Source: Candidatus Spongiisociaceae bacterium (GTDB lineage: Bacteria; Actinomycetota; Acidimicrobiia; Spongiisociales; Spongiisociaceae). From it: 64,000 nucleotides of DNA. Shown here one piece after another: positions 29,663-29,987 of this stretch. The translations under genes and the position numbers were made by a program. The first letter of the stretch is position 1. Each line of letters begins with the position of its first letter. The notes under the pieces were generated by a model that saw only the letters and a program-made list of their open reading frames with translations, was not told the DNA's origin and did not search any database. The stretch is from positions 2,816,001 through 2,880,000 of the forward strand of contig CBDCOH010000002.1 of NCBI GenBank assembly GCA_965219685.1. Direction: 5' to 3'.

Positions 29663-29706
29663 CACAGATGTTCCTCACACGCGCTCGCGACGGCTAGGAT
29701 CATCCT

Positions 29707-29987
29707 CACCAGAGAAAGGAGGTGGTCCGACTTGTTAGACAGTTCGTGTAGGACTCTGGAGGTGGCCGAGCGCTAGCGGCCGCGGGTCGCTTCCGATCGC
29801 TCCCCACACGGGAGTGATCGGGCAGGTGGCGACTCCAACTCGGACCACCGGGTCTCCCGTCCGCATGCTGGTCCTCATGCGGCATCGGTAACGAGGGCAG
29901 CGAAGCCCACCGATGAAGTACGGGCAGGCAGCAAAACTATCCAGAAGTCGTCGGGGACCCCCATACGGGGGTCCCCGGCTGTTTTTT
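29707..29987 (+). ncRNA. Candidate stand-alone structured RNA with extended SD and 14-codon micro-ORF
   Basis: TAGGAT -10 at 29695-29700, at least five predicted helices, intrinsic terminator; family not recognised. Confidence 0.6.
29950..29987 (+). terminator. Intrinsic terminator
   Basis: GTCGGGGACCCCC-ATAC-GGGGGTCCCCGGC followed by TGTTTTTT. Confidence 0.88.

Follow-up and report, generated by a model that had tools for sequence, protein, structure and literature searches.

Ms_IGR-5 (Rfam RF02471, 'Actinobacteria sRNA') is an orphan small RNA (sRNA) that is expressed in Mycobacterium and Streptomyces. In M. smegmatis, where it was first reported, it lies between MSMEG_5794 and MSMEG_5795 and, in the passages of a preprint that deal with it, it is reported to be capped with nicotinamide adenine dinucleotide (NAD), is called 'uncharacterized' and is handled separately from Ms1 (bioRxiv 10.1101/2021.12.14.472595). 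Published passages also report its validation by RNA-seq in S. lividans (PMC8079986) and its presence as a stand-alone sRNA transcription unit in S. avermitilis (PMC8780764), and MSMEG_5795 is named in a paper on Rv0812. The passages of the literature searched, in which supplementary ribosome-profiling tables were not covered, give no function, anatomy or reading frame for Ms_IGR-5, and no functional study under M. tuberculosis or M. smegmatis locus names was found in that literature. Here an RNA of approximately 280 nucleotides (nt) is described from a 64,000-nt stretch (the window) of the genome of a Candidatus Spongiisociaceae bacterium (Actinomycetota; assembly GCA_965219685.1, contig CBDCOH010000002.1, positions 2,816,001 to 2,880,000 of the forward strand), and sequence comparison identifies it as a divergent member of this family.

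The RNA extends from a predicted start at A29708 to the end of the T run of its terminator (Table 1). The most conserved features of Ms_IGR-5 are all ribosome-related: a Shine-Dalgarno sequence as long as the 16S rRNA tail (SD1), a small reading frame that is selected and yet non-coding-like, and a second Shine-Dalgarno sequence (SD2) at a fixed spacing from the stop codon. The reading favoured here, with a probability of roughly 55%, is that of a translation-gated RNA, the most conserved part of which would load a ribosome, with the tiny frame then translated through the RNA's own fold. This estimate rests mostly on the identity of the RNA and on the selection of its frame. An earlier note on this DNA, made from the sequence alone, had listed the hexamer TAGGAT, a 16-mer complementary to 16S rRNA, a micro open reading frame (micro-ORF), a second GGAGGTGG and a helix with 13 of 14 positions paired, all of which were found where it had placed them.

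When 461 nt were submitted, in a permissive form, to the Rfam search that the note had called for, RF02471 was matched at 30.1 bits (E = 3.6e-5). This is below the gathering score of 45, and a curated scan of the window at gathering scores gave no match at the locus. The same 30.1 bits correspond to E = 8.1e-5 in a search of the whole genome. The match spans model positions 1-184 without truncation and with the blocks in the same order. CC2171, ncS035, RNaseP-T and HOXB13-AS1_2 were rejected (E ≥ 0.63), as they matched through the SD string or the terminator alone.

BLASTN with 296 nt found the RNA in 59/61 genomes of the window's order, its own included; the two genomes with no match are 72% and 96% complete. 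A covariance model (R1) was built from 46 of 50 loci of the order, the near-duplicates L013, L022, L024 and L043 being left out, and gave full-length matches in 68/151 sampled genomes of the phylum, one in each and two in a single genome. Of 20 loci found with R1 and given back to Rfam, 11 matched RF02471 at E ≤ 0.001 and four exceeded its gathering score (175.9, 57.5, 51.7 and 51.5 bits). From this reciprocal homology it follows that the element is a divergent Ms_IGR-5 member and that the Rfam model is too narrow. The suggestion that the RNA is undescribed therefore fails, since the sub-threshold match is full-length and its homology was confirmed in both directions. The search for homologues proposed at the same time was successful, with both the SD and the micro-ORF conserved, and the analysis extends Ms_IGR-5 to the window's order. 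As the homologues are related, counts given here exceed the number of independent events. Genomes flagged as unpublished are included in the 59/61 and 68/151 tallies, in the 14/201 for Acidobacteriota (below), in the start codons of the phylum sample, in the counts over 101 homologues and in the upstream and G+C tallies, with no conclusion based on them alone. Two genomes have two copies on different contigs (G046, with L043 and L047, and G080). The former is 78% complete, so its two copies could be a strain mixture or a true duplication.

In common with Ms_IGR-5, the window RNA is a predicted stand-alone transcript, reciprocal searches reach the same loci, and its blocks have the same order (a 5' purine tract with AGGAGGUGGUCC, a GAGGUGG block, GCUAG, a CACC strand and a hairpin with a GUCC loop). 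Unlike it, the window RNA has extra hairpins P4 and P7, a canonical terminator and different neighbours, and the Rfam consensus structure pairs SD1 bases locally and lacks helices P1 and P2. An Aminotran_4 gene just upstream of the RNA was seen only in the best RF02471 locus (L083, 175.9 bits) and in L103, and fits the published M. smegmatis position beside MSMEG_5795. The window RNA has no Rv0812-like aminotransferase as neighbour, and position does not define the Rfam family. DUF3073 (Rv0810c-like) was rejected as a partner gene, its best match in this genome being insignificant (E = 0.75). The ncRv10810c leader element, according to passages of a preprint, belongs to a different intergenic region and is not shown to be this RNA (bioRxiv 10.64898/2026.08.18.745482).

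The single 16S gene of this genome ends in GGATCACCTCCTTTCT, and SD1 consequently pairs along the entire free tail (16/16 positions, one G-U), as the earlier note had predicted from actinobacterial 16S rRNA in general. Such pairing is found at just three of 21,882 GGAGG sites on both strands of the whole genome: SD1 itself, the strand opposite the 16S gene, and a site outside the window at which several of the pairs are G-U (G000:C2:1837718, minus strand). Extended SDs of 12 to 14 nt of the type GGAGGTG(A/G)TCC are common in this genome, and the distinctive part of SD1 is the purine tract on its 5' side. The predicted energy of the duplex with the tail is -27.8 kcal/mol, compared with -8.7 for GGAGG alone.

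The purine tract behaves as predicted for pairing with 3'-UCUUU-5'. The five bases before GGAGG are purines that can still form A-U or G-U pairs with the tail in 100/101 distinct homologues, the only variation being between A and G opposite the tail Us, while the G opposite the tail C is invariant. The motif AGGAGGUG(G/A)UCC was unchanged in 106/110 fetched loci, a count that is not independent because the motif itself was the search anchor. Judged from the homologues, SD1 is under selection. It begins 5 nt from the predicted 5' end of the RNA, and engagement of the ribosome through the 16S tail is the best lead to what the RNA does.

The micro-ORF proved to be real and conserved, its stop codon occupying one structural place in 99/101 distinct homologues, three codons after GAG-GUG (TAG 56, TGA 26, TAA 17). 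The exceptions, L117 and L121, read by eye in another frame from TTG or ATT to the same GCUAG end. In the order, 48/50 loci have a canonical start (41 TTG, 4 ATG, 3 GTG), and in the phylum sample, where the anchor motif was found in 56 of 60 loci, 43 do. The start, mostly UUG, follows GGAGGUG by 5 to 10 nt. The distance from SD1 to AGGAC varies between 21 and 26 nt in the order with the start still in frame; thus, selection rather than a fixed length keeps the frame. Between SD1 and the conserved stop there are three stop triplets in frame, compared with 77 and 122 in the other two frames. TTG is over-represented in comparison with a genome background of about 13%, which is a rough figure that includes spurious frames, and the excess may be partly inherited.

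The first five to six codons lie in an A/U-rich open loop and the distal two thirds of the frame in the pseudoknot, P1 and P2. The loop with the start and first codons has 40% G+C, compared with 67% in the surrounding loci. The codon in P1 encodes L, P or R as P1 covaries, residues after 'EV' vary along with P2, and N-terminal residues differ between close relatives. The peptide (9 to 15 residues in the phylum sample) is polar and variable. Comparison of the homologues therefore indicates that the frame is under selection and that the peptide sequence itself is not conserved. It also speaks against the micro-peptide mRNA of type I toxin-antitoxin kind that had been proposed: neither the hydrophobic peptide of approximately 20 to 60 residues nor the antisense antitoxin RNA of such systems was found, the latter having been looked for by terminator scan only.

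An AGU triplet (rarely AGC) recurs 9 to 12 nt after the start in several phyla, and in G+C-rich genomes too (here codons 3-5, 29738-29746). The open loop is rich in A/U-ending codons (UUA, AGU, UGU, with AGG and ACU). The recurrent triplet may represent an RNA motif or a patch where decoding is slow.

The minimum free energy (MFE) of the plus strand is -150.3 kcal/mol (z = -6.0), and none of 200 shuffles was as good. A family fold was obtained from RNAalifold and pair counts in alignments of the order (A1) and the phylum (A2). In the order 96.5% of alignment cells were paired, compared with 34 to 42% when partners were slid, and 12/32 pairs showed compensatory changes; across the phylum 95.1% were paired and 24/32 pairs were compensatory. 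G-U pairs are compatible with the plus strand only. The middle pair of P1 is A-U in 40, G-C in four and C-G in two sequences of the order, and 3/6 pairs of this helix have compensatory changes across the phylum. P2, which runs from the second GGUGG through the U of the stop codon, has 99.8 to 100% of cells paired and 10/14 pairs compensatory across the phylum, with the GGUG of SD2 staying fixed while its P2 neighbours covary.

Compensatory changes were also found across the phylum in 4/5 tested pairs of P3, and P6 covaries at 6/7 pairs in the order and 7/7 across the phylum, its GTCC loop being invariant in A1. P5 closes a three-way junction, and the GAAG that precedes its 3' strand is conserved. 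A continuous helix of 10 to 13 pairs, with differing sequences, was present at P5 in 14/49 relatives, a test that is valid only for a bulge-free P5 and uninformative for the window's own family. The alignments support P1, P2, P3 and P6 as the family structure, and this covariation-supported fold replaces the automatic structure of Rfam. P4, P5, P6 and P7 are as drawn in the earlier note. The GUCC of the P6 loop probably pairs with AGGAC (codons 7-8) in a pseudoknot, GGAC occurring with GUCC in 47 of 51 sequences and CGAC or CGAU with GUCG in the other four. The pseudoknot is proposed tentatively because the independent covariation events are few.

A helix said to sequester SD1 and the start codon (29721-29734 with 29836-29849; 13/14 pairs, the sole mismatch being C29731/C29839) is present in this sequence and in its MFE fold, but covariation does not support it. 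The pair at column 20 is missing in 12 of 46 relatives, that at column 24 in 11 and that at column 25 in nine, and a compensatory change was seen at one pair in a single sequence. What the CCACC strand pairs with in the family is instead the second GGAGGUGG within the ORF, at 99.8% of cells and with compensatory changes. Over the phylum as a whole, changes in the CCACC strand are accompanied by changes in SD2, whereas SD1 does not vary.

The start of the RNA is placed at about A29708, seven bases after TAGGAT, from the position of the conserved 5' block in 104 distinct upstream sequences. In these +1 is A in 96 and -1 is a pyrimidine in 98, and the conserved 5' end is preceded at a fixed distance by an A/T-rich patch (-12 to -7). 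The claim that the unit has its own -10 is therefore upheld in part: the hexamer is present within a conserved patch, but a scan for sigma-70 consensus promoters made no call at the locus. The strong terminator that had been claimed is present, and there is no downstream gene on the same strand, the gene beyond the terminator being convergent, in agreement with a stand-alone structured RNA.

In the translation-gated RNA proposed here, the ribosome would bind SD1 and then translate the micro-ORF. Beyond the open loop the rest of the 13- to 14-codon frame would be locked in the fold, with AGGAC held by the P6 loop, CUCUGG closing P1, GGUGGCCGAGCGCU building the long-range helix P2 and the stop codon at the P2/P3 junction. 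On reaching the stop, the ribosome would have unzipped the pseudoknot, P1, P2 and P3. Once the last sense codon occupies the P site, GAGGUG would stand 6 nt upstream, compared with 7 nt from SD1 to the start; as this spacing is start-like, a terminating ribosome could re-pair its 16S tail with SD2. The RNA would switch between two forms, one compact and untranslated and the other opened with a ribosome bound, and the peptide would be a by-product. The two forms may act on a target RNA, through a protein partner or on the stability of the RNA itself.

Several points weigh against this proposal. Translation itself and every later step are deduced from sequence, and the output, target or partner of the RNA was not identified in the present analysis. 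One of the 50 loci of the order has only a near-cognate CTG, one locus (L051) has a broken frame, and in the phylum sample 13/56 loci have a near-cognate start only (12 CTG, 1 ATA). Because alignment A2 was made by fitting to the model, pair counts from it are biased in favour of the structure. In this species the MFE fold uses the SD1-hiding helix, and its advantage over the fold supported by covariation is approximately 10 kcal/mol, a figure in which the pseudoknot is uncounted. SD1 may therefore be partly masked in this species, and there may be local two-state behaviour between the two folds. RNA-library contigs from two studies (225 nt each; 29718-29932 at depth 60, and 29719-29889) cover the element alone and hint weakly at a discrete, abundant transcript; as contigs from relatives, and not reads of this organism, they show neither ends nor strand, and the level is not readable from them. 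Two further RNA runs, likewise contigs, gave no coverage.

The 5' module of the RNA is not confined to Actinomycetota. A pattern consisting of SD1, a gap, GAGGUG, nine bases and a stop gave at least 119 stretches in named genomes, 80 of which were listed; the stop spacing is imposed by the pattern and so is not independent evidence, and labels of metagenome-assembled genomes (MAGs) are possibly wrong. Among the listed matches, those in Actinomycetota are from Mycobacterium, Micromonospora, Pseudonocardia, Nocardioides, Cellulomonas, Acidimicrobiia, Thermoleophilia and Nitriliruptoraceae, and the others from Acidobacteriota, one MAG labelled Syntrophobacter and Leptospira jelokensis. R1 confirms 75 of the 80, and three Acidobacteriota loci exceed the gathering score of RF02471 (51.6, 49.6 and 47.7 bits; one genome is flagged as unpublished). 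Forms in Bryobacterales/Terriglobia and Leptospira were missed by Rfam and, in 4/5 cases, by R1, and have the same 5' module with frames of 17 to 18 codons. The pattern of this module occurred once per genome in 5/5 such genomes and not in the reversed control. It was present in 6/201 sampled genomes of the Leptospira phylum, in near-identical sequences, and in 14/201 Acidobacteriota genomes, where the reversed control gave one match. The module in these phyla suggests that the RNA is much wider and older than its name implies.

Outside the phylum the module consists of a 16S-tail SD, a start and a frame of 12 to 19 codons ending E-V-x-x-x-stop, with the stop in a paired region. The loci are L170 and L247-L252 (Leptospira), L154, L157, L172, L188 and L253-L264 (Acidobacteriota), and L176.

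A wider reading is offered tentatively, as a possibility against which the odds still lie. It is that of an old family spanning Actinomycetota, Acidobacteriota, Leptospira and perhaps more, for which the ribosome is the ligand and which reports or exploits free translation capacity. In such an RNA the super-SD would load the ribosome, a throw-away mini-frame would melt the pseudoknotted fold and SD2 would hold the terminating ribosome. If this is true, the RNA would represent a hitherto undescribed kind of riboregulator. As far as the searches reach, the ribosome-centred anatomy is not in print, and it turns an orphan RNA into hypotheses that are directly testable in actinobacteria.

The alternative that survives best, although it is unlikely, is an ordinary regulatory sRNA acting by base-pairing or protein-binding, in which SD1 and the mini-frame would be only a ribosome shield against 5'-dependent RNases. 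The STAB-SD of Bacillus cryIIIA and the ermC leader are 5' stabilisers that work through ribosome binding. Like these, the window RNA has a strong SD of the GAAAGGAGG type near its 5' end, pairing with the 16S tail. The stand-alone unit with changing neighbours and the conserved single-stranded motifs of the 3' domain also suit a regulatory sRNA, for which the functional elements would be the P6 loop GGUCC, the internal loop ACUCC and the junction GAAG. However, the window RNA has no downstream message to protect and a pure stabiliser needs no start, open frame or fixed stop, all three of which are conserved, and the P6 loop is apparently used within the molecule. That SD1 is not used for initiation, as in the STAB-SD type, is doubtful because the start codon and open frame are conserved.

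It is improbable that the RNA is a sponge or hibernation RNA whose 16-pair duplex parks 30S or 70S ribosomes and withdraws them from mRNAs. SD1 is the best non-trivial site in the genome for tail pairing, its duplex is very stable, weak TTG starts predominate and SD2 could hold a terminating ribosome, all of which would suit a sponge. Such an RNA must be about as abundant as ribosomes, and published passages on Ms_IGR-5 do not describe it as abundant; furthermore, a sponge needs no conserved stop, and this RNA has one copy per genome.

6S RNA and Ms1 are also widely conserved, stand-alone and highly structured, and the window RNA resembles them in that it may bind a core gene-expression machine. 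Unlike it, they bind RNA polymerase and carry no frame. tmRNA shares a structured body with pseudoknot-type contacts and a short internal frame with a conserved stop, whereas the window RNA has an SD and a start codon of its own and lacks both a tRNA-like domain and a conserved tag at the peptide end. Rfam scans of the window and the locus, which cover Rfam models only, gave no match to tmRNA or 6S, in accordance with the view taken in the earlier note.

Slightly more improbable is a small mRNA with the peptide of 13 to 14 residues as the functional molecule. SgrS/SgrT, RNAIII/hld and SR1/SR1P are dual-function sRNAs, stand-alone molecules which, like the window RNA, carry a short frame; they encode longer, conserved peptides with an activity of their own. 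In the window RNA the frame is conserved and a D-S-S-C-like start and E-V-A-like end recur even in Acidobacteriota and Leptospira, but these residues coincide with the RNA motifs GAGGUG and AGU, and residues change where helices covary, so that the peptide drifts with the RNA structure. Moreover, close relatives differ at most N-terminal positions and one lineage reads another frame.

The genes around the RNA bear on a further, very improbable explanation, namely that it is a local regulator of convergent sulfur amino-acid genes, acting by read-through antisense to PALP or Cys_Met_Meta_PP genes with its Ser and Cys codons as sensor. In the 18 order loci scanned, the downstream gene is convergent in 11 and is a convergent PALP gene in 10, and a Cys_Met_Meta_PP gene adjoins the RNA in two more. 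However, the terminator is strong, the Cys codon is replaced in close relatives, and elsewhere in the phylum the RNA lies next to other genes, among them those for a DNA ligase and dehydrogenases, with the downstream gene often convergent. A scan of 144 of 292 candidate flanking frames plus 20 more gave no neighbour that is conserved across the phylum, many flanking frames in these G+C-rich loci being spurious. As the neighbours change and the 5' unit is conserved in its own right, the RNA is neither a 3' untranslated region (UTR) nor a leader. It does share a short frame, a terminator and the potential for translation to remodel downstream pairing with leader-peptide attenuators, which include amino-acid operon leaders, mycobacterial cysteine upstream ORFs and the whiB7 leader. 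It differs from them in that a same-strand downstream gene is absent here and in most relatives and in that there is no run of sensed codons.

Three further readings can be dismissed, namely an mRNA for a peptide of the type I toxin-antitoxin kind, a G+C-rich structure formed by chance and the 3' UTR of the upstream helix-turn-helix (HTH)-like gene. A short frame does lie in a structured RNA 46 nt past the stop of that gene, but the peptide is a short polar one without conservation, the homologues and covariation whose absence would have pointed to chance were both found, and the upstream gene and its orientation vary while the promoter position is conserved.

Table 1. Positions of the RNA, its parts and neighbouring features in the window
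Feature	Position	Strand	Remarks
Whole RNA	29708-29987	+	Start predicted, not mapped; RF02471 positions 1-184 correspond to 29708-29914
-10-like hexamer TAGGAT	29695-29700	+	In conserved A/T-rich patch, -12 to -7; negative in sigma-70 consensus scan
P1, 5' strand CCAGAG	29709-29714	+	Pairs with 29754-29759; covariation
SD1 AGAAAGGAGGTGGTCC	29713-29728	+	16-mer complementary to the whole single-stranded 16S 3' tail
Micro-ORF MLDSSCRTLEVAER	29732-29776	+	TTG at 29732, 14 codons, TAG at 29774-29776
AGGAC in ORF	29750-29754	+	Proposed pseudoknot partner of P6 loop; tentative
P1, 3' strand CTCTGG	29754-29759	+	Within ORF; covariation with 5' strand
SD2 GGAGGTGG, internal	29758-29765	+	Ends 9 nt ahead of the stop codon
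P2, 5' strand GGTGGCCGAGCGCT	29761-29774	+	Last 4.5 codons and first stop base; pairs with 29839-29849 and 29828-29831
P3 hairpin	29775-29791	+	Begins within the stop codon; pair counts in order and phylum
P4 hairpin	29793-29821	+	MFE fold; variable, lacking in some relatives (A1); no formal pair count
P2, 3' strand GGCG, internal loop ACTCCAA, CTCGGACCACC	29828-29849	+	A29844 bulged
3' domain, P5 around P6 and P7	29850-29929	+	P5 is 29850-29860 with 29920-29929; MFE fold
P6 hairpin CCGCATG/CATGCGG, loop CTGGTCCT	29861-29882	+	Covariation
P7 hairpin	29883-29915	+	MFE fold; variable or absent in relatives
Intrinsic terminator	29950-29987	+	Stem 29950-29979, 13 pairs (11 G-C), then T run
Upstream ORF	28541-29662	+	HTH-like by eye
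Heptamer array	30049-30329		40 copies of a 7-nt unit
PALP gene	30320-31375	-	Convergent with the RNA
Selenocysteine tRNA gene	7808-7898		RF01852, 77 bits, full length

The upstream ORF was listed at 373 amino acids and has no Pfam match. By eye it encodes an HTH protein with a hydrophobic C-terminus and has a probable later start near 29034. An upstream HTH gene was recognised in three of the 18 order loci scanned (L016, L035 and L052, as HTH_31 or HTH_3). The convergent gene in relatives is a PALP-type cysteine synthase or CBS (loci L010-L052). A sulfur amino-acid gene thus stands beside the RNA in 12 of these 18 loci, a linkage that was not seen elsewhere in the phylum.

The terminator of the RNA is followed by a 7-nt repeat array and then by the convergent PALP gene. 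The 40-copy tandem array consists of ACCATTC units and then ACCACTC units, and the last codon and stop of the PALP gene are inside it, as read from the listed ORF end at 30320. About 190 arrays of at least three such heptamer units occur on both strands of the genome, which looks like a genome-wide repeat family. Elsewhere in the window, a full-length selenocysteine tRNA gene was identified.

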